A stretch of 64,000 nt of DNA from a virus (taxonomy: Duplodnaviria; Heunggongvirae; Uroviricota; Caudoviricetes), in the IMG/VR virus record IMGVR_UViG_3300037312_000757. The stretch is one strand, 5' to 3'. The notes under the pieces are model-generated. The model saw nothing but the letters and a program-made list of their open reading frames with translations, searched no databases and was not told the origin of the DNA. Position numbers and translations under genes: made by a program. Position 1 is the first letter of the stretch, and every line of letters starts with the position of its first letter. Shown in pieces: positions 1 through 30,710 of this stretch.

Positions 1-1980
1 AACAGCATCCAGACGATTGCGGAATTCAGGCGAGAACGTCTTTTCAACCGCCTTGTCGACTTCACCAGAACGCGTTTCTGTAGCGAAGCCAACTGCCTTG
101 CCTGCTGCCATCGTTGCGCCCGCGTTCGACGTCATGATAACATAGACGTTGTTGAAATACACGGTCTTGCCATTGCTGTTGGTAATCTTGCCGTCATCAA
201 ACACCTGGAGCAGAATGTTGTAGATGTTCGGGTGCGCCTTCTCGAACTCGTCGAGCAGCAACACGCAACTTGGCGACTGTTCGATCGCGTTCGTCAGCAA
301 GCCGCTACCAGCACCACCTTCACCGTGGCCAACATAACCAGGAGGTGAACCGATCAGCTTCGACACCGAGTGTTGTTCCATGTACTCAGACATGTCAAAC
401 TTCACCAGCGGAATGCCCATTGTGTCAGCCAGGGTACGCGCCATTTCCGTCTTACCGACGCCGGTCGGACCAACGAACAAGAACACACCAGCAGGCTTGT
501 TATCTTCACGCAGACCAGCACGCGACAGATACACAGCGTTCGTCAGCGATTCGATCGCTTGATCTTGACCGAACACATTCTTACGCATGTTGGGATCCAG
601 CATACGCAGCTTCGAGACTTCATCTTCTGCCACGTCAGTCGACGGAATGTTACCCAGCTTCGCTACTTCGAACATGATCTGTTCGACGTCGATCACACGG
701 AGACGGTTTTCTTCACCTCGAGCACGGTCACGCGCGCCAGCTTGGTCGATTGCGTCGAATGCCTTGTCCGGCAGGAATTGGTTCGGGATGTATTGTGCAG
801 TCAGTTCAACTGCCTTGTCGATCGCTGCTTCAGTGTACGTGACACCATGGTGCTTTTCGAAACGTTCCTTCACACCACGCAGAATCAGCTTTGCTTCTGC
901 GATCGTCGGTTCGTTCACCATGATCTTCTTGAAGCGACGGAGCAGTGCGCGATCCTTCTCGAACTTTGCACGGAACTCGTCATACGTAGTGCTACCGATC
1001 ACACGCAGTTGTCCGCGCGCCAATGCCGGTTTCAGCAAGTTCGACACGTCCATCGAACCCTGCGAGCCACCACCTGCACCCATGATCATGTGGATTTCGT
1101 CGATGAAGAGAATCGGCTCTTCGATCAGTTCAAGCGCTTTCAGGATGTTCTTCATGCGCTCTTCGAAGTCGCCACGGAACTTCGTACCAGCGACCAGTGC
1201 GCCAACGTCGAGGCTGTAAACCGTCGAATTATGCAGCACTTCCGGCACCTCCTTGTTCACGATCTTCAGCGCAAGACCTTCGGCGATTGCCGTTTTACCG
1301 ACACCAGGTTCACCAACCAGCACAGCGTTGTTCTTCGTGCGACGCGCAGTGATCACAACCAACTGATCAACTTCTTCCTCGCGGCCGATCATCGGATCAA
1401 GCTTGTCTTCTGCTGCCAACTCGTTGAGGTTCTTCGCATATTGCGCGAGATACGCAATCGCGTCTTCCTTCGTCTTGATCTGAACTTGCTGACCACCTTC
1501 GCCACCCATGCCTGCAGGTGCGCGACCTTGAGATGCACCAGTCGAACCAGTGCCATGCGACAGGTAGCTCTTGACTGCTTCCAGCGTGATACCTTCTTCG
1601 AGAAGGAAGACCGCAGCGTGGCTGTTGTCTTGTTGCAGAATCGTCACGATCAGGTCAGTAGCGCGTACTTCTTTGCGGCTGCTGAAAATCACTTGCGCGA
1701 CAGCGGTTTGCACAACACGTTTCAACGCGTCAGTGTCGATGGGTTCTTGACCAGCCGAAACCGTCGGGACCATGCCGTGATCGAAGAACTGGGTGAGACG
1801 AGCGTTGATTTCGCCTTCATCGCCATTCAGCTCCTTGATCAGCTTCTGGACGTCTGGTTCCACCATCAGCGCCTGAAGCAAGTGTTCCAGGGTGACGTAT
1901 TCGTGCTTGAGCGTAGCTGCGAGATCGTATGCGACCTTGAGAACTCGCGAGATGTCGCTCATATTGATATCATTACTCAT
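1..1980 (-). CDS. clpA: ATP-dependent Clp protease ATP-binding subunit ClpA (3' end runs off the window)
   Basis: Not in the ORF track; manual minus-strand translation from ATG at 1980 gives [35 protein letters not shown], Walker [16 protein letters not shown], Walker B FIDEIHMI, second Walker [20 protein letters not shown] and [11 protein letters not shown]. Start overlaps the upstream stop (ATGA). Confidence 0.95.
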
Positions 1981-2484
1981 GTGCGCATGTTCCTCTTCAA
2001 TTTGCTTTGGCGCTGTCTTGCAATCTGGAGCGATGCTCCTCCGACCTTAGATGTGAATACGATGCCATCTAAATGTTCAAGTTCGTGCAAAAAAACATCT
2101 TGCATCGATACCTTGCAACGATTCTACAACAAAATTGCCAGTTGTGTTTTGATATTTGCCAGTTATTTTTTCTGGCCGTTTCACACCCAGGTAAAGAAGT
2201 GGGAAACTTAGACATCCTTCCGTCCCAGATTGGGCTTCCTCTGAGACTTCCAGAATTTCTGGGTTGTAGCAAGTGATGAACGTGCCATCTTGCTTCTGCA
2301 TGACGAAGAAGCGCTCGCTAATACCAACTTGGGGAGCGGCGAGACCAATGCCACTACTTGCTTGCATCGCCTCTACCATTTGACCTTCGAGAGTAGATCG
2401 TTCTTCTTCAGTCGACTGGCTGAAATCATACTCAGTCGTTTTCTGCTTCAAAACAGGGTTATTCTCGTCTACTAATTTGAGCAT
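1977..2484 (-). pseudogene. def: Peptide deformylase, frameshifted in a T7 run (or sequencing error)
   Basis: GIGLAAPQVG and EGCLS motifs lie in ORF 2077..2484. The HELEH metal motif and C-terminus (CFLHELEHLDGIVFTSKV...NMRT*) are in the next frame after the A7 run at 2089-2095, ending at a TGA that overlaps the clpA ATG. Confidence 0.9.
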
Positions 2485-2839
2485 TCGATAAGTTGCTATC
2501 TAAAATGGCGCGCACTTTATTGATTGCGCTTTCAGCTATTCTAGCACAATTTGGCACATTGCCTAGATGCGTGATGTGCCGTATGTCAAATCTTTCTTGC
2601 AAAGTGGCTTGCCAAATCTTCTGGCGTATGTTTGCCACTTCTTCAAAAGTCATCGTGTTTTCTTTTCTAACGCCAACCTCCTGATCATGCAGGTAGTATT
2701 CGGCGTTCATGATCTCAGTATCGATCTGTTGGGTATAGCCGGCGCAGTCAAGAATGTCTCTCGACTGCGCATGGACTGAAAAGCTGATGAAACACAATAG
2801 AACGGCAAAAATTCGCACGGTTCCCTCCGGTGTAATCAT
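2459..2839 (-). CDS. Hypothetical secreted/periplasmic protein
   Basis: 126 aa with a signal peptide-like N-terminus (FAVLLCFISFSVHA) and two Cys; in operon context. Confidence 0.65.
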   Translation of the reverse strand: MITPEGTVRIFAVLLCFISFSVHAQSRDILDCAGYTQQIDTEIMNAEYYLHDQEVGVRKENTMTFEEVANIRQKIWQATLQERFDIRHITHLGNVPNCARIAESAINKVRAILDSNLSNAQISRRE

Positions 2840-2874
2840 TCACTCACCAGATGATTACACCGTTGGAAATAAAG

Positions 2875-3789
2875 TCAATAGTCGAGGTTTTGGATTTCAG
2901 CTGCGAGTGCTGAATTGACAGAATCAGGCCAATGCATGTTCAGCTCAACGAAAAGGTCCCCACGGACCTTCGTGTTCATTACTGACATGCCGTGCCCTGG
3001 GATACGAATGCGCGTGCCTGGCTTTGTTCCAGGACGAATGGTGATGTCGAATTCGGTGTCATCGATCGTACCAATTCGAACTTGCGATCCGCCGAGAAGA
3101 TCCAGCACGTGAATGTCTTTCTTCAGAACCAAGTTCTGAGCTTCACGTATGAATTCTTTGTGTTCGGTGACTGTAATGTGAACGTAAAGGTCGCCAGCAG
3201 GACGGCGAGTGTTTCGACGTGAACCAGCTGCCGCACAGCGAATCTTCTTACCAGTGTCGATACCAGCAGGAATGTTCAACAACACTGAGCGACGTTCACC
3301 GTCGATGGTGTAGGTGACAGTGGTCTGTTTACCCTTGAACGCTTCTTCTAGGGTGATTTGCATGTCGAAGTATGCGTGCTCGTTTGCTCGTTCGTATTCG
3401 TAATCATAGTAGCTTTGCCTACCTTGATTCGTCTTACGCATCCATTCATCTGCATCATAGGACCAGTTGGCGTTTCGGTCAGCTTCCTTGAAGTCTTTGA
3501 AGATGTCGTCCCAGTTATAGCGCCGTCCCGTCGAGTATTGGGAGTCGTTGTCATTGAACTTAGTGCTGTACTTGGAACGACGCTTACGGTCATAGACCGC
3601 GCGCTTTTCTGTCGTTTCGACAGTCTCGAACGCTTCTTTCACACGTTTGAAATTCTTCTCAGCTTCCTCGATGTTATCGGGGTTCCGATCCGGGTGCCAT
3701 TTCATGGCAAGCTTGCGATACGCCTTCTTGATCTCGTCGTCGTTCGCAGTCTCGGCTACTCCTAGAATTTCATACGCACTTTCGTTCAT
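2875..3789 (-). CDS. dnaJ: DnaJ-class co-chaperone (J domain + DnaJ C-terminal domain, no zinc finger; CbpA-like)
   Basis: YEILGV...IKKAYRKLAMKWHPDRNP J domain; ITLEEAF, IPAG, GDLYV and GDLFV C-terminal motifs. Confidence 0.92.
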   Translation of the reverse strand: MNESAYEILGVAETANDDEIKKAYRKLAMKWHPDRNPDNIEEAEKNFKRVKEAFETVETTEKRAVYDRKRRSKYSTKFNDNDSQYSTGRRYNWDDIFKDFKEADRNANWSYDADEWMRKTNQGRQSYYDYEYERANEHAYFDMQITLEEAFKGKQTTVTYTIDGERRSVLLNIPAGIDTGKKIRCAAAGSRRNTRRPAGDLYVHITVTEHKEFIREAQNLVLKKDIHVLDLLGGSQVRIGTIDDTEFDITIRPGTKPGTRIRIPGHGMSVMNTKVRGDLFVELNMHWPDSVNSALAAEIQNLDY

Positions 3790-7946: not shown

Positions 7947-9554
7947 TTACGCTACTAGCAATGTGGCTACTACAGTTACCGTCATAGCAGTGGATGATGC
8001 AGGAGTGAACATCAATGACCAGGTGCCTGTTACGATCTGTGCAGAGAATGAACCAAGCGTACCATTTGATGCAATGATGTCATACGTTGTCAACCAGATG
8101 TTTGTCGCATCAGTAATCATCATGACCTCGCAGGACTGGATATTGTTTGATGCATCCACCACCTGAACCATAAACTTGGCAGTGCTTGAAGTCGTAACCG
8201 CGGTAGAATACACTGCTGTTGGTGTGGTTGATGAAGTAGAAGTAGTTGCTGTATCTAGTGTCGCCTTCTCGATCTTCACTGGGCCGTTGAAAGTAGCGCC
8301 GCCACCGCCTGGTGTTACACCAGCGTTGGTCAGAGCAGTTGTCACAAACGCTGTTGTGGCGATTGATGTGTCGTTATCACCAGCTGCTGGAGTCGGAGCA
8401 GTTGGGTTACCAGTCAATGCTGGGCTTGCCAGAGGAGCAGCACCTGATACGTCTGCCACTGCAAGAACAACGTTACCAGTACGACCTGCCACCGTGACCA
8501 CGTTTGCAGTCAATACACCAGAGCCGTTTACCGTCAGACCAGTGCTGACTGATACTGCACCAACAGCTGACGATGTTGCCAGAGGCATATCAGCAGAAAC
8601 CAATGTGCGGTATGCCACCGCACCATTTGCTGATGAAGGAGCAGCCAGGAATGTGTTCTTTGTTTGGTTACCCCAAGCAGTGATCATATCGGTGGACAAT
8701 AGAATCACGTCTCCGGTACGATCAAACACTGATGTCACTTCTGATGCTACACCATCAATCTTGTCCCATGTGGAACCATTAAACGCGATAATATCGCCAA
8801 TATTCCACTGGGAGATACCGTCGATCGGCGTGGTGCCAGCCACTGAAACTTTGTACATCCAACCCTTTGTACCAACACCACTAGCCAATGATGGTGAGTT
8901 GGTTGACGCGTTCCAAGTACCCTGATAATTCAGACCGCCAACCACGGCTGGAGGCATCTGGCCCATAGGCACGTAGCCGCTTGAATCCAAGCTCGCCACC
9001 CCTCCGGCTACCGCGATGACGTTCGGGTTGACTGGTGTGTAACCAAGCGCACCAGTGACGTCTGATGACTGCAGAACGACTGTTCCTGTGCGACCAAAGA
9101 CTGTTTGGATTGGCGCTGCGGCAGAAGCACGAGCGTTAGTAAAGTACAGGTTTGTACCTTCTGCCACGGCAGAAGTTGTAAAGCTGATGTTTGCTGTACC
9201 GTCGAATGACACACCATTGATAGTACGCGCGGTTTGGAGCTTTGCTGCAGATGTTGCATTGCCTGACAGTGCAGCGGTGATTGTACCAGCTGTGAAGTTA
9301 CCAGACGCATCACGTGAAACAATTGTCGAAGCAGTATTGTTTGATGTTGCGTTTGAAGTCAGAGAGATGGTACCTGGGCCAGGCGTAAAAGTCAGACCGT
9401 TAGTTGCGGTCAGGCTACCAACCGAGAAGCGACCGTTTATTGCATCGCCGATCATGAGCTGGCCGTTTGTTGGAACGACACCGCCTACGGATGTGACATA
9501 TCCACCAAGCTGCAAACCATTTAGGAGAACAAAATCTCTATTGTTCGTTGACAT
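7947..9554 (-). CDS. Tail fibre protein
   Basis: 535 aa; KLQTARTINGVSFDGTANI fibre motif, YQGTWNAS..P.L domain, PTAPT shaft repeat. Confidence 0.85.
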   Translation of the reverse strand: MSTNNRDFVLLNGLQLGGYVTSVGGVVPTNGQLMIGDAINGRFSVGSLTATNGLTFTPGPGTISLTSNATSNNTASTIVSRDASGNFTAGTITAALSGNATSAAKLQTARTINGVSFDGTANISFTTSAVAEGTNLYFTNARASAAAPIQTVFGRTGTVVLQSSDVTGALGYTPVNPNVIAVAGGVASLDSSGYVPMGQMPPAVVGGLNYQGTWNASTNSPSLASGVGTKGWMYKVSVAGTTPIDGISQWNIGDIIAFNGSTWDKIDGVASEVTSVFDRTGDVILLSTDMITAWGNQTKNTFLAAPSSANGAVAYRTLVSADMPLATSSAVGAVSVSTGLTVNGSGVLTANVVTVAGRTGNVVLAVADVSGAAPLASPALTGNPTAPTPAAGDNDTSIATTAFVTTALTNAGVTPGGGGATFNGPVKIEKATLDTATTSTSSTTPTAVYSTAVTTSSTAKFMVQVVDASNNIQSCEVMMITDATNIWLTTYDIIASNGTLGSFSAQIVTGTWSLMFTPASSTAMTVTVVATLLVA

Positions 9555-9568
9555 GAATTAATCCTCAA

Positions 9569-10222
9569 TTAAGTCGTGACATAGGTCGCCACAATGGTTA
9601 CCTTCTTTGTGGACGCCGCTGTTGCTTGGAAAGTCAGAATCACATTACTACCTGACATGGATACGTCGAATGATCCAAGAGGGTTTTGGGTAGTCACCAC
9701 CGCAAAACCTGTCATATCCAATGTTGAACCGTCCGTCACAACCAAAAGCTCCTCTGAGTGGAAAGCATTGGTTGAGGTATCTTGAACCTGGCACATGAAC
9801 TTAACCGTACCACCGGTTGTCGTGTTGAATGTATAGACGGTTGTTACTGCTGTATCGGTAACTGAAGTTTGTTGAGTATCAATGGTTGCATTCTTGACGC
9901 TCAAAGCACTACTAAATGAACCACTTGAGGAGTTAGCGGGGACATAGCCAAGAATGGTACTGATATCACCTGCCGTGATAGCATGCCATTCGAGTGTATT
10001 GGCTGTTGTACTAACTCTGAGGAAGGATCCAGTGGTTGCACCCGTGGCTGGCCAAATCTGGCCATTCAATGCCACTGCACTTGTTGAGAGTTGCAGAGGA
10101 GCTTGCAAACCAGTTCCGTCCTCGACCAGACGTAGGATACCATCTAAGCCACCATTAGTGTTGTTGAGTGTCAACAACGACTTAAAGGTGGAAGCAGGCG
10201 TCTTACCTGAAAGATTTGGCAT
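9569..10222 (-). CDS. Virion protein with conserved N-terminal adapter domain (copy 1 of 4)
   Basis: N-terminus FKSLLTLNNTNGGLDGILRLVEDGTG matches three other genes; C-terminal domain resembles that of 7947..9554. Confidence 0.75.
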   Translation of the reverse strand: MPNLSGKTPASTFKSLLTLNNTNGGLDGILRLVEDGTGLQAPLQLSTSAVALNGQIWPATGATTGSFLRVSTTANTLEWHAITAGDISTILGYVPANSSSGSFSSALSVKNATIDTQQTSVTDTAVTTVYTFNTTTGGTVKFMCQVQDTSTNAFHSEELLVVTDGSTLDMTGFAVVTTQNPLGSFDVSMSGSNVILTFQATAASTKKVTIVATYVTT

Positions 10223-10324
10223 TTCTTATCTCCTCGAACGATTAGTGATATTTATGCCAAGTTTAAGGAGTTCTGCCTGGGTTTGATAGACTCAGACTAT
10301 TATCAGTGAGTAATTGATAGTCTT

Positions 10325-10560
10325 ATAACCTCCATGAATATTCCTGGAAGGATGACAATATCTTGGTATCTTCCTCAGAGATGGTTGATAGGAGGAAGTT
10401 ATTGAGTATAACCACTATGGGGAATTTGTGGAGTTCTCTCTGGGTTTCGTAATCATCTAGAGTGTTGATTGATTAACCTCCATGAATTGTCCTATGAACA
10501 ATTGATCTCATAGATGGTTATATCTGAGTTGTTTGTGGGGAAGGAACCACTAATGGGGAT
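10325..10560 (+). repeat. Degenerate ~140-150 bp tandem duplication in a non-coding spacer
   Basis: TAACCTCCATGAAT at 10326 and 10474, each followed by GATGGTT and AACCACTA(A)TGGGG. Confidence 0.6.
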
Positions 10561-10610
10561 ATGGTTATGTGGGAAAGCCACCAGTGGATAGTGGCTTTGT
10601 TGTGTGGGGA

Positions 10611-11051
10611 TTACAGTTTTGTTTTGAGTAATGGACTCAGATATAGGTCACGTGGAGTGACTCTGTTCAGTTGTTGTGCGTTCAGCAGTGGGGTGTTGAT
10701 GTATTCGAAGCCGGCGGCGATGAGTTCTGAGCAGAACCATCGTTTGTCGTTATTCCAATCTGATCTAAATGGCATTCCTGCGATAGCCATGAAGTCATAT
10801 GGTTTGCCGATTTGGTTGTAGAACCAGGCCATCAGGGATTGTTCTAGTTCTAGTGGGAGTTCGATGTATCGGATTTCTTCTTTGATGACTGGGGTGTAGT
10901 TCCAGGGGCGGATTTGGACGCCGCCATTAGCTCGTGCTCCTAGCCATCCTTCTAATGTTTTGACGTCGACGTGAGACCAGTCGCCCCAAGTCCAGAATTT
11001 GATGAATTCTGATACTGGGCCTGTGCCGTCTACGAAGCGGATTTCGATCAT
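10611..11051 (-). CDS. Permuted papain-like (YiiX/YebB, NlpC/P60 superfamily) amidase
   Basis: WSHVD, GKPYDF, WFCSELIA and VTPRDL motifs; start MIEIRF after GGGGAG RBS. Confidence 0.8.
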   Translation of the reverse strand: MIEIRFVDGTGPVSEFIKFWTWGDWSHVDVKTLEGWLGARANGGVQIRPWNYTPVIKEEIRYIELPLELEQSLMAWFYNQIGKPYDFMAIAGMPFRSDWNNDKRWFCSELIAAGFEYINTPLLNAQQLNRVTPRDLYLSPLLKTKL

Positions 11052-11137
11052 AGTTGATCTCCCCAAGTTGTTTTTCCTTAAAAATATTTATGGGGAATTC
11101 GGTCGAAATGAAGTACTCAGATAATGCGTGGATGGTC

Positions 11138-11166
11138 GAAGAGCCACTCATAATGAGTGGCTCTTC
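11138..11166. terminator. Intrinsic terminator
   Basis: GAAGAGCCACTCA-taa-TGAGTGGCTCTTC. Confidence 0.75.
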
Positions 11167-11183
11167 GAGAATAGTTGGTAGAC

Positions 11184-11783
11184 TTAGATCTGGATAGTTT
11201 GTGTGATGCCAACTGCTTGTTGGTTAACCACCAGAGTGTAGTTAGGAATCACATCTTTGATCATGTTTGTTGGGCTGTCGATAGCTACACCATTTACGGT
11301 AAGAGCTGCATCGCAAGCTGCGAAAGTTTGAGTCCAAGATGTTGGAGTGTAAATTGACGACATTGTGCTAGTTGTCGATGTGACGGACAAGCTGGAAATA
11401 CCATTATCGTTTGAGACATTAGATACAGTAATATTGATTACATTTGACACGCCGGTAGTCAAGCAAGCCAGAATTAAATGTGTGCCATCTGTACCTGGCA
11501 GCGCATATGCGATCAAATGTTGACTGAGTGGTGACGCATTGATTGCTTGGATGATGCCAGCAATGGTATCGTTTGTTGAATCAATAGTTATCTCAACGCT
11601 TTGTGAATTCACGGAGATATTAAGTGTGCCATTGCCCAATTGTGCTTCTGAACTAAAAGCAGCAGATGTCAGGGTTTGAGCTTGCGCCACTTGTGTTACT
11701 TCGACGTTATATGATGTTGTTGGAATTTCAGCAGCAGGGATCAGTTGAATTCCGGTGCCATTAATAATTGAATACGTGCTCAT
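11184..11783 (-). CDS. FliD (flagellar cap, HAP2)-like central domain protein lacking the terminal helices
   Basis: SYNVEVTQVAQAQTLTSAAF, GTLNISV, IDSTNDTIAGIIQAIN, GTDGTHLIL, VSNVSNDNGISSLSVTS and DAALTVNG recall the central head region of Burkholderia-type FliD. Confidence 0.75.
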   Translation of the reverse strand: MSTYSIINGTGIQLIPAAEIPTTSYNVEVTQVAQAQTLTSAAFSSEAQLGNGTLNISVNSQSVEITIDSTNDTIAGIIQAINASPLSQHLIAYALPGTDGTHLILACLTTGVSNVINITVSNVSNDNGISSLSVTSTTSTMSSIYTPTSWTQTFAACDAALTVNGVAIDSPTNMIKDVIPNYTLVVNQQAVGITQTIQI

Positions 11784-11822
11784 TTTAAACCTCTAGTTAG
11801 TAGGGAATATTTATCCAAAAGA

Positions 11823-11849
11823 AAAGAGCCATCCTTAGGATGGCTCTTT
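11823..11849. terminator. Intrinsic terminator
   Basis: AAAGAGCCATCC-tta-GGATGGCTCTTT. Confidence 0.8.
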
Positions 11850-11864
11850 ATACCTCATATCTGT

Positions 11865-14033
11865 TTATGTTGCTTTGATTACGAACTTTGTGAATGGCAA
11901 AGCAGAAGGAATCAAAGGAGTGCGATATGATGTGGTGTCTGGTACCAGGAAGTTGGTGATGTTATTATTACCACCAGCGATTGATAGCATACCGTTATTA
12001 CCCATAAGCGTCCAAGATTGGATCATGTCAGAGGTGGTACCAGTAACACCTTGGCTCCAGTTAATGCCGTCATTGCCATACCAATAGCTACCGCCACCGC
12101 CGTAAATCACGAAGTAACCGTTGATATAAGCGACGCCCTTCGCGTTAGTTGAAATTGGTGCTGGGAAAGTACGTTGAACCCAAGTATTACCACCGTCAGA
12201 TGAGTAAACGTAAGTTGAGTTGCCTGATGAGTTGATTGTCAGCAGAGCTTTGCCGTTACCATAAGCTACGCCGGTGATAATGGCACTTGTAATTGAAGTG
12301 ATACTACCGGAAATCCAAGTTACACCGAGGTCGTTTGACACTGAAACACCACCACCAATAACGGTAATGTCTACCAGTGTATTTCCAAGACTGAACATCG
12401 TAATACCAGTAGTGGAACCAACAGAGTTGTTGTTTGGCCAAGGCATTGAAGTTTTTGCTACTGTGGTGACACCGTAGTCGGCAGTCATTACGAAGTTAGC
12501 CCCGATTTGACCACCAATAAAAATGTTTTCGCCAACATTACATACGGATGATGGGACCCAAGTTAGTGTAGGTGAGTTTATTGTCCAGTTTACGCCATCT
12601 GATGACGAAGCAATAAACACACCATTACCAGTAACTGGTGTACCCCACAAAATAAATTTTGTTGGGGTCACGAATGCTTGGCGCCAGTAAATAGGCACAG
12701 TTTGGCTTGTGATAGCTGAATATGTCCATGAAGCACCGCCATTAGTGGTGATAGCTACTGGAACGGAAACAGAAATTTGGTTAAATTGTGTGTTTTCGAA
12801 TGTGATCCATGTATTACCAACACTCATCATTGGATAGAACACTGGTAATGCCGTTGTCATAGTCAGAGGAACAATACCACCCAATGTTGACATGTCATTT
12901 GTCCAGTTTACCACAATTTGAGCACCGCTGGCATAATAACCTACGTTTACAAGTTGATTGCCGTAAACATGAGGGCTACCAAATGCTGTTGTGAAGAACG
13001 GGCCGCCGGAGGTATACAACGAAGCTTTAGATGTCCAAGTAATACCATCTGTTGAATACTGTGTGTTAGTCGTAGTGGCGTTAACAATAGTAACAATCAT
13101 CGCACCATTTGTCATAACTTCTACGTTGGCAAACGTGTTGCTGATTGCACCAGTGCGAGCAGTCCAGGTAACACCATCTGGTGAAGTATTGATGGTTGTA
13201 GATGCCGTGCCTGATGGGCCAACAAAGATAGAGAGTACTGAATTCCAACGGAGTGATGAAAAGCCTACTGTTGGACCACTGCGAACAGTCCAAGTTGTAC
13301 CATCTGGTGAAGTAGCGGTGTTATTAGTGCTAGTACCAGAAGTAACATAAACCCATGATGAACCGTTCCAATCCAAGCCTTTTGGGGTATATGTGGAAGT
13401 TGTACCAACAGTAACTGATGCAAATGTTACACCATCTGTACTTTTATAGACAACGTTATTGGTACCGTTTGTGTACTGAGCCAAATAAACGCCATTACCG
13501 TAACGAACAATACCAACAAAGTTGCTAAGTGGAAATGTAATTGAGGTTGCTGAAGACAGATTTAAATCTGAGTACATGTACCAAGTTGTGGAACTCAGGA
13601 ATGCAACATAGATATTGCCATTCGCCACGTTGATACTGTTAATCGTTGTTACGCCTGATGGGAATGTCAAAGTTTTCAGATAGGCGAGAGATGACAAATT
13701 ACCACCAGTTGTTCTGAACACTACACCAGTTAGACCAATAACAAAATATTCGCCACCGTAAGAGAAACCGATTGGGTTAGAACCCATATTATTGGTCGTG
13801 GCCTGTTTTGGCAAAGCTGATGGAATGCTTGTCTTTGTCCAATAGTCACCCATAAATGTTGGGGGAGTAATGGCAGCCAGAGCAGGATATGTAGAGGCGC
13901 TAAACTTAGCGCCGCTATCCACATAATTTGAATTTGAAAAGCCTGTTGGTACTTGCAATAGTTGGCCTGTTACAAGTGTTGAAGCACTAGTGGAAGCATT
14001 GCTTACTGAACCACCAAATGTAGAAATACCCAT
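11865..14033 (-). CDS. Asp-box (BNR) beta-propeller virion/receptor-binding protein
   Basis: 722 aa with many S-x-D-G-x-x-W repeats (SPDGTTW, SPDGVTW, STDGITW, SSDGVNW, SSDGGNTW). Confidence 0.8.
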   Translation of the reverse strand: MGISTFGGSVSNASTSASTLVTGQLLQVPTGFSNSNYVDSGAKFSASTYPALAAITPPTFMGDYWTKTSIPSALPKQATTNNMGSNPIGFSYGGEYFVIGLTGVVFRTTGGNLSSLAYLKTLTFPSGVTTINSINVANGNIYVAFLSSTTWYMYSDLNLSSATSITFPLSNFVGIVRYGNGVYLAQYTNGTNNVVYKSTDGVTFASVTVGTTSTYTPKGLDWNGSSWVYVTSGTSTNNTATSPDGTTWTVRSGPTVGFSSLRWNSVLSIFVGPSGTASTTINTSPDGVTWTARTGAISNTFANVEVMTNGAMIVTIVNATTTNTQYSTDGITWTSKASLYTSGGPFFTTAFGSPHVYGNQLVNVGYYASGAQIVVNWTNDMSTLGGIVPLTMTTALPVFYPMMSVGNTWITFENTQFNQISVSVPVAITTNGGASWTYSAITSQTVPIYWRQAFVTPTKFILWGTPVTGNGVFIASSSDGVNWTINSPTLTWVPSSVCNVGENIFIGGQIGANFVMTADYGVTTVAKTSMPWPNNNSVGSTTGITMFSLGNTLVDITVIGGGVSVSNDLGVTWISGSITSITSAIITGVAYGNGKALLTINSSGNSTYVYSSDGGNTWVQRTFPAPISTNAKGVAYINGYFVIYGGGGSYWYGNDGINWSQGVTGTTSDMIQSWTLMGNNGMLSIAGGNNNITNFLVPDTTSYRTPLIPSALPFTKFVIKAT

Positions 14034-14044
14034 GATTTAATCCT

Positions 14045-14917
14045 TTAGAAACCAGTTACCATAATCGACATATTGGCACTGGAACCAATAACTGTCACTG
14101 TCCAGCCCGCCGGCAGAACTGTAGAAAGATCACACAGAAGTGTTGTATTCGCCGAAACGGTCACATTGTTCAGATACGCATTCGCTGCACTAGCTGCACC
14201 ACCATTTGTGAAGTTCACAGAAATAGTCTGATCAGAACCAGATGAGTTACAAATGATCAATGAATTGACAGTTTCAGTCTTACCTGTTGGGACTGTATAT
14301 ACGACTGTAGAAGAGGTCGGCATCGCACCAAAGTACAGGCGTTGAATGTTTGAGGAGCCATTGCCAGAAACGTTAATAGTGACGCCAGTAGCACTTGCCG
14401 AACCCACTAAGCTACCACCATTGAGAATAACCATCTCAGTTGAAATCACCACAGTCTGGCCAGCAGCCACAGAACCATTTGAGAAAATAGCATTTGCAGC
14501 ACTAGCAGAACCACTCTGAGGAACAATATTTAGATTAACTGTAATGGCTGAACTAGTAGTATTCACCAATGTGATCTGAGTGAGCAACGTATCCTGACTA
14601 GCAGTTGCCAATGTAGCAGATGAAGTACCCAATACACCCTGATATGTCAGAACTGGAACTACTGATGACCCATTGGCGTTTGACCATGTCAATTGATTAC
14701 CAGTGCTTACTGACAATACTTGACCAACACCAGGTGTGACTGTAGGCCAAATCAGACCATTCAGAGCAATCTGAGTGGATGAAAGACTGAGAGGAGCAAC
14801 AGTACCATTGCCATCCTCCACAGTACGAAGCGTTGAGTCAAGTCCTGCACCCGTATTAGTGAGCTTCAACAACTCCTTATACGAATCCATCACTCGACGA
14901 TTGAATAATGATGGCAT
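14045..14917 (-). CDS. Virion protein with conserved N-terminal adapter domain (copy 2 of 4) and two internal repeats
   Basis: Start MPSLFNRRVMDSYKELLKLTNTGAGLDSTLRTVEDG after GGAGG RBS; duplicated ASAANA...V.A..T domain. Confidence 0.8.
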   Translation of the reverse strand: MPSLFNRRVMDSYKELLKLTNTGAGLDSTLRTVEDGNGTVAPLSLSSTQIALNGLIWPTVTPGVGQVLSVSTGNQLTWSNANGSSVVPVLTYQGVLGTSSATLATASQDTLLTQITLVNTTSSAITVNLNIVPQSGSASAANAIFSNGSVAAGQTVVISTEMVILNGGSLVGSASATGVTINVSGNGSSNIQRLYFGAMPTSSTVVYTVPTGKTETVNSLIICNSSGSDQTISVNFTNGGAASAANAYLNNVTVSANTTLLCDLSTVLPAGWTVTVIGSSANMSIMVTGF

Positions 14918-14959
14918 TCTTTCCCTCCTAATGAGATATAATACCATCAATATTTATGG

Positions 14960-16930
14960 TGAACCTTACAGGATATTACAACCACTATTGCTCAGAAGAA
15001 CTATATACCATCTTCCTCCTCAGAGGAAAGAACTCTCCATCCTCAGAGGAAAGAAACATGGCACCCGAGATTCTTTTAGAAAACTCGAAATTCTTTTAGA
15101 AATCCCCCTATAACGACCTTCCACCCGAGATTCTTCAATTCTCCCTCAGAGGAACCAACTACCATCCTCAGAAGAAAATACTAACCACCTCCACCCCTCG
15201 AGGAATCCTCAGAGGAAAGAACTCCAATAACCATCTTCCCTCAGAAGAACATAACCACAATTTCTTATACCCTCAGAGGAAAACCACAAAAAACATTTAC
15301 CAGCCACTAAAATCAATTACAAATCACACTTATGGCTTAAAATCAATTACCACCCTCAGAGGAAAGAACCGGTCATATACCATCCTCAGAGGAAGATAGT
15401 TTGTTGAATACATTTCCTCAGAGGAACTATCTTTCCTCCTCAGAGGAAGAAACCTGGTTTACAACTTGAATGCCACTTTTCCCCGAAAGAGTCCTACCAA
15501 GTTCACAAAAATATTGACGACACAGACAAAGAACACTATGGTGACGTGATTTTCGTTAATATGATGTACACACGGCGTCATCCTTTTACCATCTTTGATT
15601 CATCCTCAGAGGAAAAGATGAACTTCATCCTAGTTTCACCATTTCACCTACTGTTTCGTTATCGTGAATGACAGTTGGTGACGGTTCGCCTAACCGTTCA
15701 AATACTGTTCCATTACGAAAAAACGCGTCATCGCGGTATCGTTAACATGGCATTGAATAAGCATTGCTAAATATCATCACGAATATTTCATTCATGCTTC
15801 AAAATGTGTTCTAAACGATGCACCATGTTCATATTCCTTTCATCCTCTGAGGTTTCCTCAGAGTCGCTATCTGAGTTGTTCCTCTTCCTCCTCTAGTCTT
15901 TTCATTCACTCATTCTGTCCTCTGAGTAATTTTCATTACCACAGTTTCTAATCCTCTTTGATCTCTGAGGATTATCACTACTGTCGCTCTCATTGCTTTT
16001 ATTATCTGAGTTGGTATTGCTGTTCTCTTAGGAAAAAGTCTGTATTTAATTTTGCGTCTTTTAGTGACGTATAACAGTGAGTGTTATCTGAGATGTGGTT
16101 ATCTGAGAAATGGTCGGGGCCATTATTCTTGATATTGGTGATTTTCAAGTCTGAGGTGGTATTATCATTTAAGCTCTGAGGGATTTTCGCGGTGAAGTTT
16201 TTCTCAGAATTGCGGTAATCATCTGAGTGGGTGTTAAGTTCTTGGTGATGTTTGCGCGGGAAATTTATTTGGTAGCTCCTTCAGATTGGCTTTTCTTTTC
16301 GCGCGTGGTATTTGAATTTTGCGGAGAATTATTTCCAGAATGGTGCGGAGAATCGAACTGTGATTATGATGAAAACCTTTGAAAACCGTAGAAGAGCCTT
16401 GGTGGGGAAGCAGTGTGGGATCTGAGTGCAGAGCTGAGCGTGGTAGCGGAGAAGCGTGGTGAGCCTTGTGCGCGTGATGGTGCGGGAAATGATGTGAGGA
16501 GAATGACCCATAGAATGGGGAAGAGAATGGGGAAGGGAATTGGCTCTTGCGCGTGGGGAGCATTTTCCAGAATGAAGTCTAGAATGGGAGGGTGAAAAGA
16601 ATCATTTTGCCACTGAAATTGGGGAATGGCTGTATAAAAATTTCGCCAGCTTTACGCCAAATTTCGGGATTTAGGGTTTTGGCCCGAAAGACTTCCTGGA
16701 AAAAGCCAAAATTCTGGTCGCCGTGAAATCGTGAATTCCAGAAAATGACATGTCAAGAAATCGCCTATGGAGCGATTTTCACGTTTTCCAGAATGAGTCT
16801 AGAATTGAGTCAGAATATCATCTAGAATGAAACCAGAATAGAAACAGAAACCGCCATACCAGCCATCTACCACTCTTTCACCAGAATATCTTCTATGGCG
16901 AATTTTTCTTTGAAATTTTCTTTTGAAAGA
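14960..16930. repeat. 2 kb non-coding region with oppositely oriented CCTCAGAGG/TCTGAG repeats; candidate replication origin or protein-binding array
   Basis: Ten exact CCTCAGAGG at 15018-15612, about ten reverse TCTGAG at 15844-16430, AGAAT cluster at 16500-16890, visible A/C- to G/T-rich strand switch. Confidence 0.8.
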
Positions 16931-16985: not shown

Positions 16986-17555
16986 TCAAGTGGTTGGTAG
17001 ATTATATCCATTAGCGTCTGGTTGATTGGAACCTACTGGTGATATCCATGTTACGTTTGTGATTTGATCGTAATCGGTCATAGCATTTATTTGAGTAGCC
17101 AGAGTTGCCTTTTGTTGTAGGCAGGCCAGTATTTGTGCTTTACCGTCTCTGCCTACTTGTTGGATCTGGGTGGTGTTGTGACTAAGATATGACCAGGTAT
17201 TGGTTGAGTTAGCGCACCAGAATGGGGTTGACCAGGATGTTTCGTTTGCTTGGACTGCCAGTACTGAGTCGAGGACTGAGGCTGAGAGGTTCTGTTGGTC
17301 CAGGTCTTCAGCGGGATAATGTAGCCAGGTTCCTGTAGCGTTTGAGTTGAAGCCCAGATAGATTTCGCTCTTGCAGGCGTCGTTCATCTGTTGGATCTTC
17401 CATGCTTTGTGATCGTCTAGTGAGTAGATTGGATCTGGTGTATTGCCATCGGATAGCCATGTTTCGTAATCATCCCAGTGACGAGAGCCTTGCGGGATGA
17501 TTTCATTTGTATCCTCGTTGATAACGATAGTTGGATCTGCTGTTAGTTTGTACAT
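16986..17555 (-). CDS. Tail fibre assembly chaperone (DUF4376-like)
   Basis: DYETWLSDGNTP, GFNSNATG..HYP..DQQNL, FWCA..W; follows a fibre gene. Confidence 0.75.
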   Translation of the reverse strand: MYKLTADPTIVINEDTNEIIPQGSRHWDDYETWLSDGNTPDPIYSLDDHKAWKIQQMNDACKSEIYLGFNSNATGTWLHYPAEDLDQQNLSASVLDSVLAVQANETSWSTPFWCANSTNTWSYLSHNTTQIQQVGRDGKAQILACLQQKATLATQINAMTDYDQITNVTWISPVGSNQPDANGYNLPTT

Positions 17556-17567
17556 AGTTAGGAGTCC

Positions 17568-19832
17568 TTATAGATCAGCGTCAGCGGTGGCGTGGATCAC
17601 ATAGGTATTATTAGCCGCGATTGTGGTTGGTGTGCCTACTGTTACGCCTGCTGCTGATATCTTTGAAACTGGTAGAGTTTGCGCCTGTACTGCGCCTGAA
17701 AGATTTGTCCAATATGGGGTCGAGTTATTACCGACTGTGTAGAGCGTTACGGTTGGTAGTCCTCGCATTGGTACATCAAATGACCAGTTAGCCCATTGTG
17801 AGAAGCCGGTTGAACCTTGGCTGATTGTTAGAGGTGTAGAGTAGATACCAGTGTTTGCTGCTGGTGTGGTAGCAGTTGGGAATGTTTTGCGGTAGAAGCG
17901 CAGACACTGCATGATTTCTTGATGTGTAGTTTGCACCATGTATGGTGTTGCTGCTGGTCCTGCTTCCAGTTGAACCTGTACCAGGTAGAATGAGAATGCT
18001 TGGCTTGTTGGTAGAACGAATTGGAGTGCCAGATAATCGTTACCGTTTGTACCGAGCGTGCCTGTTGTGGTTGGTAGGTTGAATGTGGCGGTTAGACGTG
18101 TGAAAGTTGAGCTGTTAACGGTAAAGTATTGAGTTGGTGTAGTAACGGTTGGTGATGGAGAACCGCCTGTTCCGAAGCATTGTGCTAAGTTTACACCAAG
18201 CTGGAATGAGCTTTGGGAACCAGCACCAAGAGCGACGCTGAATGAAACCGTACAAGTTTGACCGTTCAGAACGTAAATGCCTTCACAGCGGTGACTCAAC
18301 ATCAAAGATGTGAGGTTTGGGGCCACTGTTTGATTCCAAGAATACACACCGTATGGTCCAAGAGATGCGGTGAGACCAGCTGGTTGTGTTCCGGCCAGTG
18401 CTTGGCCGATCGTGAACGTGCCTGGTGATGTGCCCGCGTAATCAATGCGCCATTTGTCTGCCGTGTATGTACCTGACGCTGGAGTTGTCCAAGAGTTACC
18501 ACGCTGCCAGACGTCAAATTGGCCATTCAGAATACGATTTCTGCGGTACGGGACTGACTGAACAAATGCGGTTGAAGCAATTGAGTTATCGTTCTTCCCT
18601 AGTGGGACCACATTTGTCATTGTGTTGGTGATGTTCACACCTGAAGAATTCGAAATCACTTCTGACGAATCACCTGGTGTGATCAATGTGGTATTCGCAT
18701 TACCATTTGAAAGAACCAGTGAAAAACCGCCTGTGGTATTGTTGACGACTATCCACCATCCTTGTGATGGGAGAGTGACAGTTGCATTAGCGGTAAGTGT
18801 TCCTGAAATCTGCAGACAGGCATAATTGTATTGATTTGCAGCCAATATCGTATCGCCTGAAATTGTTATTGCAGTGGTACTGTTGCTCACTATCTGAACG
18901 AATTGTGTGGTTGCAATTTTGTGGCTGCTATCACCAGCTGGTGGTGTTGGTGCTACTTGGCTTGAAAGGAAAATACCGTAAGTATTGTGTAGGATTGCGA
19001 AACAAGACTCACCAGGTTGCAAGGTTAATGGTGAACCTGCTCCATTCGACATGACGAAAGTAATAGGTTGTGAACCACCATTCCAGAGAGTTGCCGAATC
19101 TGATTGACCAATACTTGGTGGTACTGATGGAAGCGTAATCGTTGCTGCGGTTGAACCCTGGAAATACAGAACTGAATACGCACATTCGTCTGGGGTCAAT
19201 GTCAGGTCACCAGTAACCGTAAAGGTATTCACCCCAGTTAATACTTGGGCAAGCCATCCCATGCTAACTGGTGCGAGACTAGGACTTAGCAGTGTGGTGG
19301 CGGGAACAACTGAGTTTGAGAAAGCCAATCCGGTACTCAAACCAATAACAGGTGCAACTGATGATTGCGGAATTACGATCGAACCGCCATTTGCAGTCGT
19401 TAGGGTAATAGAAAAAGCACCTGATGTTTCATTAACAACTAACCATTGACCTGCATTTGGTAGCGTAACAGTCACATTAGTGGTAAGAGTTCCGTTCAAA
19501 ACGATAGTGCTAGAACCAGCTTGGGCGGTAGACAGAATCACATTAGCGTTTGATAGCGTAATGTTTGATACACCTTTGGCTATGTTTTGAACGAACGCCG
19601 TGGTAGCGTAAAGAGTAGAACTGTCACCAGAAGTAGCTGTAACGCCGGTTGGTGAATTCATACCACCATAGGCGAGTGAATTCCAGGCTGTTGTGCCGTC
19701 TCCGATTTTGAAGTATTTGGTGTCAAGCTCAAGACCCAGTTCGCCTACTGCTAGAATCGGATTTGATGCTGTCCATTGTGCCGCATTTTGTCTGCGGAAT
19801 TGAATAGTGCCTTGATATGTGAATGCTGCCAT
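17568..19832 (-). CDS. Tail fibre with Mtd_N/hyaluronidase-type N-terminus and carbohydrate-binding-like C-terminal domain
   Basis: IQFRRQNAAQWTASNPILAVGELGLELDTKYFKIGDGTTAWNSLAY; RNRILNGQFDVWQRG...YTADKW...VQLEAG...CLRF. Confidence 0.85.
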   Translation of the reverse strand: MAAFTYQGTIQFRRQNAAQWTASNPILAVGELGLELDTKYFKIGDGTTAWNSLAYGGMNSPTGVTATSGDSSTLYATTAFVQNIAKGVSNITLSNANVILSTAQAGSSTIVLNGTLTTNVTVTLPNAGQWLVVNETSGAFSITLTTANGGSIVIPQSSVAPVIGLSTGLAFSNSVVPATTLLSPSLAPVSMGWLAQVLTGVNTFTVTGDLTLTPDECAYSVLYFQGSTAATITLPSVPPSIGQSDSATLWNGGSQPITFVMSNGAGSPLTLQPGESCFAILHNTYGIFLSSQVAPTPPAGDSSHKIATTQFVQIVSNSTTAITISGDTILAANQYNYACLQISGTLTANATVTLPSQGWWIVVNNTTGGFSLVLSNGNANTTLITPGDSSEVISNSSGVNITNTMTNVVPLGKNDNSIASTAFVQSVPYRRNRILNGQFDVWQRGNSWTTPASGTYTADKWRIDYAGTSPGTFTIGQALAGTQPAGLTASLGPYGVYSWNQTVAPNLTSLMLSHRCEGIYVLNGQTCTVSFSVALGAGSQSSFQLGVNLAQCFGTGGSPSPTVTTPTQYFTVNSSTFTRLTATFNLPTTTGTLGTNGNDYLALQFVLPTSQAFSFYLVQVQLEAGPAATPYMVQTTHQEIMQCLRFYRKTFPTATTPAANTGIYSTPLTISQGSTGFSQWANWSFDVPMRGLPTVTLYTVGNNSTPYWTNLSGAVQAQTLPVSKISAAGVTVGTPTTIAANNTYVIHATADADL

Positions 19833-20230
19833 TACGATGTTCCTCCGTCTATGACGACAATTTGGTAGAACAATGCATTGGTACTCGCATCCCCGCCGTC
19901 AAAGTTCAAAATTGGTGTGTTTACCAGATCATTGTAGTCACCACTTGTAGCCACATTTGCCAATCCATTTATGTCATTTGCGATCAAACAATGCCATTCA
20001 AAGGCATTGTTTGCTGGATTGATTCTTAGAACTTTGTTTGCGGCGAAGCCATTTGCCGGTATATGATAACCGTAAAGGCCAATTGCGTTGGTGCCTAGTT
20101 GAAGACCTGAAGGATTTCCTGCGCCATCTTCAACATTTCTGAGCGTTGCATCTAAACCAGTACCAGGATTGGTGACTTTTAGGAGTTCCTGATAAGCAGA
20201 ACTAGGCGAACGCCCTTTGAGAGATGACAT
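19832..20230 (-). CDS. Short virion protein with conserved N-terminal adapter domain (copy 3 of 4)
   Basis: MSSLKGRSPSSAYQELLKVTNPGTGLDATLRNVEDGAG after GGAG RBS; stop overlaps the start of the next fibre gene. Confidence 0.8.
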   Translation of the reverse strand: MSSLKGRSPSSAYQELLKVTNPGTGLDATLRNVEDGAGNPSGLQLGTNAIGLYGYHIPANGFAANKVLRINPANNAFEWHCLIANDINGLANVATSGDYNDLVNTPILNFDGGDASTNALFYQIVVIDGGTS

Positions 20231-20331: not shown

Positions 20332-20826
20332 TTACCAGCTGATTGCCATGACCGTTGCTGAGTCAGTAGCGGACATGATCTGATTGATGAGATCTTGCTT
20401 CTTTGTGAGGATGGCATTTACGCCTGTGAAGAGGTCAGCACCTGCTTGTTGAATCTGTGGAATGCCGTGCTGAAGATAAGCCCAGACGCCGCTTGAATTT
20501 TGCACTAGCATTGGCATTGTAGTTTGACCTTGCAATTGTGGCAGCATTGATGCGGCTACGACTGAATTGTAATGTACCATGTCTGAGTCTTCGCCTGAAT
20601 ATGTGTATGTTGAACCCAGTGCATTTGACGTGATACCAGCTGCTTTCGCAGTGTCTGCAGCAGAAACGATGATGCCATATTTGTATTGCTGCGCGTCTGC
20701 CAGAGCGATTGGTTCTGGAGTATTACCATCAGCCAACCAAGCTTGGTAATCACCGTTTGAAACGTCTACGTATGAACCATCGGTCAGATTGATGACGGTA
20801 TTTTGATCGGTCGTAAGTTGGTACAT
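20332..20826 (-). CDS. Tail fibre assembly chaperone (DUF4376-like), paralogue of 16986..17555
   Basis: MYQLTTD, DYQAWLADGNTPEP, GITSNALG, W.YL.H...QIQQ.G.D. Confidence 0.75.
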   Translation of the reverse strand: MYQLTTDQNTVINLTDGSYVDVSNGDYQAWLADGNTPEPIALADAQQYKYGIIVSAADTAKAAGITSNALGSTYTYSGEDSDMVHYNSVVAASMLPQLQGQTTMPMLVQNSSGVWAYLQHGIPQIQQAGADLFTGVNAILTKKQDLINQIMSATDSATVMAISW

Positions 20827-30140: not shown

Positions 30141-30710
30141 TTACCAGCCAGTTGAATAATCATAAGATGCAACAGCAGCTACAGTAGTTAAAGCCATAAT
30201 ATTGTCATGATGTGCTTTTTCATTTGTGAATGCACCTTGCACTTGCGTCTGGATTTGATCAATCAAAGCTTTTGCATCGCTAGGAGCCATACTCAACCAA
30301 CCATTAATACCTTTGAAGTCGATTGTGGCTGTACCATTTGAAACCACATTAAGAATTGACATAACATCAGAGTCAACTGGAATCGAAACACTATTGTAGA
30401 CAACAGGTTTATATGCAACTCCATATCGATAAGCCGCAACCTTATTCAACAAGATTTGTTGAGCTTGATCTAGTGGTAAATCTGTTTGAATCCAAGTTAT
30501 TGAATAGGTACCATCGGGATTCTGTGTTGGTGTACCTTGCGAGAATGATGAAAATTCAGACGTTGGGCAAGGAGTGAATAGTAATTCTGCTACCCCAAAG
30601 CCAGCAATATCTGCAGGTGAAAGAACTGCTGGGAATGAAACCAATGGATTGCGAGCACGGAATTCTTGCTCTGAAATTGGTTGCATCGTTGTTAAATCGA
30701 GTAAGTTCAT
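30141..30710 (-). CDS. Tail fibre assembly protein (DUF4376-like)
   Basis: FRARNPLVSFP, AAYRY, FKGINGW, QVQGAFTNE...W; follows a fibre gene. Confidence 0.7.
   Translation of the reverse strand: MNLLDLTTMQPISEQEFRARNPLVSFPAVLSPADIAGFGVAELLFTPCPTSEFSSFSQGTPTQNPDGTYSITWIQTDLPLDQAQQILLNKVAAYRYGVAYKPVVYNSVSIPVDSDVMSILNVVSNGTATIDFKGINGWLSMAPSDAKALIDQIQTQVQGAFTNEKAHHDNIMALTTVAAVASYDYSTGW

Follow-up and report, generated by a model that had tools for sequence, protein, structure and literature searches.

The protein P0001, encoded on the minus strand at positions 11184..11783 of a 64,000-nucleotide stretch of DNA from a tailed phage (Caudoviricetes; hereafter, the window), is by sequence and modelled structure clearly a homologue of the D2-D3 head of the bacterial flagellar cap protein FliD, and of nothing else. 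Its gene lies within the tail-fibre cluster of the phage. The FliD domain itself and the capture of modules by phages were already known; the novelty lies in a D2-D3 head that forms a phage gene of its own and can be traced. Phage receptor-binding proteins are often built from borrowed modules whose origin is seldom identifiable. For P0001 the sequence reveals which gene was the source (a Burkholderiaceae-type fliD), where it was cut (exactly at the D2-D3 borders) and how it has since evolved in the phage, as a stand-alone gene that has phage expression signals, diverges fast and carries a polymorphic loop.

Identity of the encoded protein

Profile, sequence and structure searches with P0001 (199 aa) converge on FliD. 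The NCBIfam FliD family PRK08032 aligned with residues 23-191 over profile positions 93-258 of 465 (E 1.5e-15), and NCBIfam scores did not exceed 57 bits, against equivalog cut-offs of 375-580. A sequence search of the PDB returned six FliD sequences (best 5fhy, E 1.3e-9; also 5xlj, 6kty, 5h5w and 5h5v), the sole match outside FliD being an AAA ATPase at chance level (E 0.9). An exhaustive phmmer/HMMER search of 1.84 billion representatives gave 712 matches at E<=1e-3, led by one of 43% identity (E 7e-29). Nearly all of the best 150 of these 712 are 420-690 aa long and aligned at roughly residues 90-300, while the remainder of the 150 are shorter fragments matched on the same head region; among the phmmer matches listed, P0001 is about 40% identical to any known FliD. 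A metagenome scan added relatives of 27-41% identity in full-length matches, mostly on short contigs, and one fragment of 33 residues at 65%.

The AlphaFold model of P0001 (pLDDT 92.3, pTM 0.86) superimposes in Foldseek on the D2-D3 crystal structures of E. coli, P. aeruginosa, Salmonella and Serratia FliD with TM 0.76-0.81 (E ~1e-13), and on the model of a 521-aa FliD cluster with TM 0.91. The earlier note on this DNA had recognised FliD head motifs in the protein and proposed a structural comparison; the motifs are present and align with Burkholderia-type FliDs, and the comparison reached TM 0.81 on the E. coli and P. aeruginosa heads (E 1e-13). Profile and structure searches were both significant, the reverse of the outcome which that note had named as speaking against its assignment. 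A compact protein that is predicted to fold well, P0001 also offers a means of asking what FliD heads bind.

Absence of the filament-insertion parts

The D2-D3 head (plate) domains are present in P0001, and the D0/D1 helices, with their roles in filament insertion, export signalling and FliT binding, are absent. Aligned with the nearest FliDs, the protein starts at the first D2 strand and ends with the last D2 strand, its residue 1 falling near residue 95-104 of the full-length proteins. Pfam FliD_N (PF02465) found no match in P0001 at E<=0.1, and FliD_C (PF07195) aligned residues 156-192 with its positions 1-37 of 236 at a sub-threshold 18 bits (cut-off 25.4), as would follow from the loss of both terminal helices that had been claimed. 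A signal peptide or export signal was likewise sought in P0001, and none was found. The locus is not a flagellar one, the neighbours being fibre, adapter and propeller proteins and not fliC, fliS or fliT. Lacking D0/D1, P0001 could neither sit on a filament nor leave the cell through the flagellar secretion system, and it is, judged from its sequence, unable to cap a flagellum.

These absences bear on the suggestion that the phage protein is an anti-flagellar effector, a dominant-negative head that poisons the host FliD cap or titrates a flagellar partner and so stops motility or flagellotropic superinfection. P0001 is homologous to a host-type cap head, and D2-D3 heads touch each other in the cap plate of solved structures. 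However, a protein that has neither the type III export signal of the N-terminus nor the C-terminal helix for FliT could not reach the filament tip from the cytoplasm, and at the level of identity given above a match to a particular host cap is not evident. Moreover, in P. aeruginosa D1 is the only functionally important domain of FliD and the heads are dispensable or interchangeable for capping, flagella remaining functional when heads are removed, exchanged between species or substituted by a peptide (PMC8533109). A late-type promoter, as described below, would also fit a takeover function poorly. With the export signal and FliT helix missing, and D1 alone functionally important, any action on the flagellum of the host from within the cell is disfavoured; dominant-negative inhibition of the cap is unlikely, and we allow the effector reading only a slim chance.

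Gene structure and expression signals

The reading frame runs from an ATG at 11783-11781 to a TAA at 11186-11184 and occupies exactly the coordinates first proposed for it, but on the minus strand. A ribosome-binding site, AGAGG (11790..11794, minus strand), can be read from the sequence 6 nt 5′ of the ATG, and a candidate phage promoter motif, ATAAATA (11808..11814, minus strand), lies 24 nt 5′ of the same codon, where a TAAATA promoter had been postulated. This motif is enriched: the window holds 17 copies against 6.3 expected, a number reached in 0 of 100 shuffles, and all 17 are on the minus strand with none on the plus strand, mostly 15-45 nt ahead of start codons. It resembles the T4 late promoter TATAAATA. 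From the excess of copies, their restriction to one strand and their placement before start codons, we rank ATAAATA as a candidate promoter-type signal of the phage, of the T4 late type, which may act late. Copies precede fibre genes and also non-structural and replication-region genes at 42-51 kb, so that sharing the motif is no proof of co-regulation with the fibres.

The gene is bracketed by hairpins. The predicted terminator of the upstream propeller gene (11823..11849, minus strand; a 12-bp stem followed by a T-run) appears from its sequence to insulate the FliD-head unit, and 15 nt past the stop codon of P0001 lies a 15-bp hairpin (11136..11168, minus strand; -26.6 kcal/mol, z -8.7) without a T-run. 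Of the terminator previously assigned to this gene, the hairpin with a T-run thus exists upstream, and the structure downstream is a hairpin alone. On these predicted signals the P0001 gene is a separate transcription unit within the fibre cluster.

Its own promoter motif and flanking hairpins look like those of a moron-type insertion rather than of an integral cassette member. The product might then not be part of the virion at all, being released at lysis or acting in the cell away from the flagellum, for example as a surface or matrix decoy or as a blocker directed against later infections or competitors. Besides the autonomy of the unit, the lack of an anchor sequence in P0001 would suit such a role, as would two observations set out below, namely that the head is the least constrained gene of the locus and that it is missing near a marker gene in more distant relatives. 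On the other hand, its position beside the propeller has been kept in two lineages with saturated synonymous sites, the protein lacks a signal peptide or export signal, and we know of no decoy or blocking activity of FliD heads. We regard a non-virion product of this kind as unlikely.

The receptor-binding cassette and its surroundings

Fibre genes take up about 27 kb of the window, which also encodes rIIA/rIIB, a clamp loader and two giant LamG-repeat proteins; tail-fibre and receptor-binding genes flank P0001 on both sides, in agreement with the setting among adhesin genes noted at the outset. Immediately upstream lies P0169 (722 aa; 11865..14033, minus strand), identified as a BNR/Asp-box double beta-propeller from its Asp-box repeats and structural neighbours. 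It contains at least nine S-x-D-G-x-T-W repeats and has no Pfam or PHROG match, and its Atlas model resembles BNR, Sortilin-Vps10 and PSII_BNR double propellers (TM 0.6-0.7). By this modelled fold, P0169 is probably a receptor-binding or glycan-acting tail protein, and we propose that it could be the functional partner of the FliD head. A complex prediction for the two proteins scored 0.00, below the mark, which speaks neither for nor against binding.

The first gene of the cassette, P0170 (290 aa; 14045..14917, minus strand), is preceded by ATAAATA at 14951 and begins with an N-terminal adapter domain of about 80 aa, so that an adapter-headed protein and the propeller come before the FliD head, which takes the last position. 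The same adapter domain is common to four minus-strand genes (9569-10222, 14045-14917, 19832-20230 and 30721-32322, with starts at 10222, 14917, 20230 and 32322); the copies are 34-41% identical to the first and share 21 invariant columns. Each of these genes heads a different receptor-binding cassette, in what looks, at the sequence level, like a plug-in system for multiple fibres. Neighbouring cassettes are closed by DUF4376 genes (16986-17555, 20332-20826 and 30141-30710).

Downstream of the head lies P0171 (146 aa; 10611..11051, minus strand), a permuted papain-like protein (YiiX/YycO, Peptidase_C92-like) with an ATAAATA of its own. P0171 recurs at 56-75% identity on many large contigs of up to 523,572 bp, and the gene would appear to be a handy marker for this megaphage clade, whose other contigs include ones of 310,766, 216,307 and 75,153 bp. 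Three distant relatives were traced through the conserved 145-aa papain-like gene, with flanks of 6 kb on each side. None of the three has the head, the propeller or the adapter protein within 6 kb either side of that gene; from this joint absence, the head tracks its cassette and, as far as such short flanks show, would seem to come and go together with it. In two of the three (L040 and L042) a DUF4376 gene is found directly upstream of the 145-aa gene. A full tellurite-resistance-type cluster (two TerD, TerC, a vWA-TerF-like protein and two TelA) adjoins the 145-aa gene in the same two relatives (L040:6779-12438 and L042:6791-12435).

The place of the head within the cassette raises the possibility that P0001 is an assembly factor, helping to fold or oligomerise the beta-propeller or a fibre without being carried in the particle. 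Full-length FliD is a folding aid for flagellin. The last position in the cassette is the slot of the DUF4376 proteins, both in neighbouring cassettes and in L040 and L042, and the head co-diverges with the propeller. In contrast, the chaperoning function of FliD has been located in D1 and not in the head (PMC8533109), the raised non-synonymous polymorphism in an exposed loop would be unusual for a chaperone, and the separate promoter and terminator uncouple the head from the propeller gene. We assign the assembly role a low but appreciable probability, somewhat above that of a non-virion product.

Some further features of the region are recorded here. Between 14960 and 16430 the window is gene-poor and carries 10 exact plus-strand copies of CCTCAGAGG (15018-15612) and one minus-strand copy (15844), where 0.25 would be expected. 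An Rfam scan over 9-18 kb, which includes this stretch, found no family, and no tRNAs were found in the 64-kb window. Just after the fibre cluster lie proteostasis genes of host type, encoding DnaJ and a peptide deformylase (window 1-3789, minus strand); host-type proteostasis genes, including one for a ClpB-like AAA+ protein, also lie past the fibre cluster of the sister phage described below (L001:18717-20648).

The sister-phage orthologue and the origin of the head

P0001 is recorded on a contig of 523,837 bp. A syntenic orthologue of 187 aa, 41% identical to it, is encoded on a contig of 522,289 bp from a sister phage (L001), and the cluster to which this orthologue belongs (P0005), found on many JGI-metagenome contigs of up to 522,289 bp, contains the only other head-only proteins. 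The sister gene is abundant, occurring in over 100 entries (contigs or index blocks) from JGI metagenomes 3300063237-3300064012. Public gene calls list the orthologue as a 'flagellar hook-associated protein 2' of 215 aa (L001:10001-10648). The start used there is a TTG within the upstream terminator hairpin and was rejected as an artefact, the real start being an ATG at L001:10085. The model of the orthologue (pLDDT 93.2) has the same D2-D3 structure, with TM 0.65-0.69 to FliD heads, and the sister copy is without the last ~10 residues of the head.

Gene order in the sister phage runs from a 290-aa adapter protein through a 765-aa propeller, the head and the 145-aa protein to a 216-aa adapter and a 534-aa fibre. 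A hairpin is present at the matching upstream position (L001:10010-10038) and a canonical terminator follows the head, whereas the promoter motif at the matching place is degenerate, with only TAAATA, located before the hairpin.

Other candidates for independent head-only genes were set aside: P0063 sits in a fragmented bacterial flagellar locus, P0145 is located on a contig of 964 bp, and 34 other short proteins found by profile all carry FliD_N or FliD_C. None of them is evidence of a second head-only family.

The source of the phage gene was examined in a maximum-likelihood tree of 142 head regions, most of them without an organism name, obtained by a quick search without bootstraps. The two phage heads are sisters (SH-aLRT 96) and nest in a clade of 13 rows (SH-aLRT 99), whose four named members come from Paraburkholderia (two), Caballeronia and an uncultured betaproteobacterium. 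Sister copies inside a Burkholderiaceae and betaproteobacterial clade indicate, on this tree, one capture from a Burkholderiaceae-like fliD before the split of the two phage lineages. The phylogeny called for in the earlier note therefore places the phage copies where its reading of a Burkholderia-type FliD would have them, and its picture of a captured and trimmed host flagellar domain agrees with a host-type head cut precisely at the D2-D3 borders. P0001 thereby points to a flagellated betaproteobacterial host for this uncultivated clade of ~520-kb phages.

Comparable genes were sought in other viruses. Neither tblastn of P0001 against 50,697 phage records nor megablast of window 9000-15000 against deposited phages gave a match, and no close relative of the phage was found among the 50,697 deposited phages. 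An IMG/VR scan with a phage-only alignment returned no relative, and in a fold search of BFVD none of the viral proteins showed the two domains arranged in this way (best TM 0.40). Taken together with the searched literature, INPHARED, IMG/VR and BFVD thus yielded no phage-encoded sequence homologue of FliD.

Maintenance, divergence and polymorphism

Between the two phage lineages synonymous divergence is saturated, with dS of 1.2-1.7 or undefined (for the head, dN 0.58 against dS ~1.5), and both head reading frames are nevertheless intact. In the sister phage the head is represented by five alleles on 11 contigs, free of stops and frameshifts, and the invariant or near-invariant columns of FliD heads are largely retained in the phage copies. 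The intact frames at saturated dS, the five clean alleles and the retention of flanking hairpins together lead us to reject neutral decay, which, joined with a lack of expression, had been named at the outset as speaking against a functional reading.

The head has at the same time changed quickly. Between the two phages the head is 41% identical and the propeller P0169, the fastest-diverging protein of the locus, 32%, whereas the other fibre and adapter proteins reach 57-73% and the remaining neighbours 52-66%. The corresponding dN is 0.58 for the head and 0.70 for the propeller, against 0.20-0.41 for other genes of the locus. By these sequence comparisons, no other protein of the locus has diverged as far as the head and the propeller, and the head diverges faster than neighbouring structural genes, as expected of a protein in contact with the host.

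Within the sister population, pN (0.012) and pN/pS (0.55) are higher for the head than for any other of the 17 genes compared. Its polymorphic codons comprise five non-synonymous and three synonymous changes, small counts that nonetheless differ from the other genes pooled (Fisher p 0.013). All but one of the five replacements lie within the segment that corresponds to P0001 135-153, a single loop modelled with low confidence and of variable length among bacterial FliDs. Judged by this polymorphism, the head is the least constrained gene of its neighbourhood, and its high pN/pS would fit relaxed constraint as well as diversifying selection.

The head might accordingly be viewed as a functionless remnant of an accidental capture that is drifting to loss. 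Apart from its pN/pS, this would account for its absence near the marker gene in the three distant relatives and for the shortened end of the sister copy. Such an account is difficult to reconcile with a frame that is open in two lineages at saturated dS, with alleles free of disabling changes, with confident D2-D3 models for both copies and mostly conserved FliD-head columns, or with a cut exactly at domain borders and a retained ribosome-binding site, promoter motif and hairpins. We consider it the least probable of the rival readings, with a chance slimmer still than that of an anti-flagellar effector.

The composition of the locus deserves separate mention. In window 4725-32322 the fibre and receptor-binding proteins have K+R contents of 2.4-4.5% and S+T+N+G contents of 28-48%, in a sharp split from most other window proteins (8-19% and 16-29%). 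P0001, with K+R of 0.5% (1 of 199 residues) and S+T+N+G of 40%, falls into the fibre class and apart from most non-structural proteins (K+R 8-19%), and the sister head contains no K or R in 187 residues. Depletion of K and R as a phage-specific adaptation was considered and dropped, as one or two such residues are all that several bacterial heads in this clade contain; the fibre-like composition of P0001 may have been inherited from the donor.

A proposed role in receptor binding

We favour, tentatively and at a little less than an even chance, the reading in which P0001 is an adhesin or decoration accessory to the receptor-binding apparatus. Its position in the fibre cluster, its promoter motif, its co-divergence with the propeller, the polymorphism of its loop and parallels in the literature all point in this direction. 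Under this proposal, P0001 would be made along with the fibre proteins, under control of the ATAAATA promoter, and would join the cassette that comprises the Asp-box beta-propeller (11865-14033) and the protein headed by the adapter (14045-14917). It would work outside the cell, exposed as an adhesive or decorating module, and its variable loop at ~135-153 would evolve along with the host surface. Such usage would parallel that of the bacterial FliD head, which is exposed, fast-evolving and adhesive, and that of single FliD-D3-like domains on the sheaths, nozzles and capsids of other phages. FliD has been reported as an adhesin in several species, with direct binding often unproven (PMC4009794), and phage sheaths and other virion proteins bear FliD-D3-like folds on their outside (PMC10457771, PMC12846349). 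Association of P0001 with the virion is something that we infer from these lines of evidence, and P0001 consists of D2-D3 alone, with no recognisable anchoring segment, which counts against an adhesin or decoration.

Flagellar involvement from outside the cell would be a further step. P0001 could act as a flagellar-tip mimic on the receptor-binding apparatus that engages the flagellum, or as a free head that disturbs the flagella of neighbours after lysis. As a mimic it could bind head to head to the FliD cap plate, or to related outer domains of flagellin, and so mediate tip-directed flagellotropic adsorption. We judge this to be quite improbable; if true, it would add a novel route by which a phage turns a domain captured from a host organelle to its own use. 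That P0001 serves as a ligand for host FliD, as had also been put forward, is pure speculation. The probability left after an adhesin or decoration and the four rivals belongs to something that we have not listed.

Comparison with known systems

The closest known counterpart of P0001 is the D2-D3 head of bacterial FliD (HAP2), as represented by the structures from E. coli (5h5w), P. aeruginosa (5fhy), Salmonella (5h5t) and Serratia (5xlj). The relationship is one of true homology, with 35-43% identity over 199 aa and the same two-domain fold and inter-domain arrangement (TM 0.8-0.9), and the crystallised D2-D3 constructs, at 189-208 aa, equal P0001 in length. Unlike bacterial FliD, the phage protein lacks the D0/D1 helices and with them filament insertion, the export signal and FliT binding, and its gene lies in a phage tail-fibre cluster behind a phage promoter motif and not in a fliC-fliD-fliS-fliT locus.

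The DUF4376 (PHROG 1348) accessory genes resemble the head in being small genes at the 3′ end of a receptor-binding cassette that are swapped with the cassette between relatives. P0001 differs from them in being unrelated in sequence and fold, and in having its own promoter and terminator.

A prophage-encoded flagellin regulated together with TldR is reported to be complete and exportable and to replace the host filament subunit in lysogens (PMC13418256 / bioRxiv 10.1101/2025.07.22.666180). Like P0001, it is a phage homologue of an extracellular flagellar protein; in contrast to that flagellin, P0001 is an export-incompetent fragment in a structural cluster of lytic type.

Finally, FliD-D3-like insertion or lateral domains in the sheath proteins of Vibrio phage XM1 (InD; PMC10457771) and Pseudomonas phage Adele (PMC12846349) display a FliD-type beta-sandwich on the virion exterior, as is proposed for P0001. 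The model of P0001 gives weak single-domain matches to the sheath chains 7kh1, 8kee and 8env. The sheath domains are single, fused into a structural protein and recognised by fold only, whereas P0001 has both D2 and D3, unambiguous sequence homology, a nameable donor clade and a free-standing gene. The authors of the XM1 study suggested that its sheath domain had been captured from a host flagellar cap (PMC10457771), and P0001 gives sequence-level support to this fold-based idea that phages recruit flagellar-cap domains.
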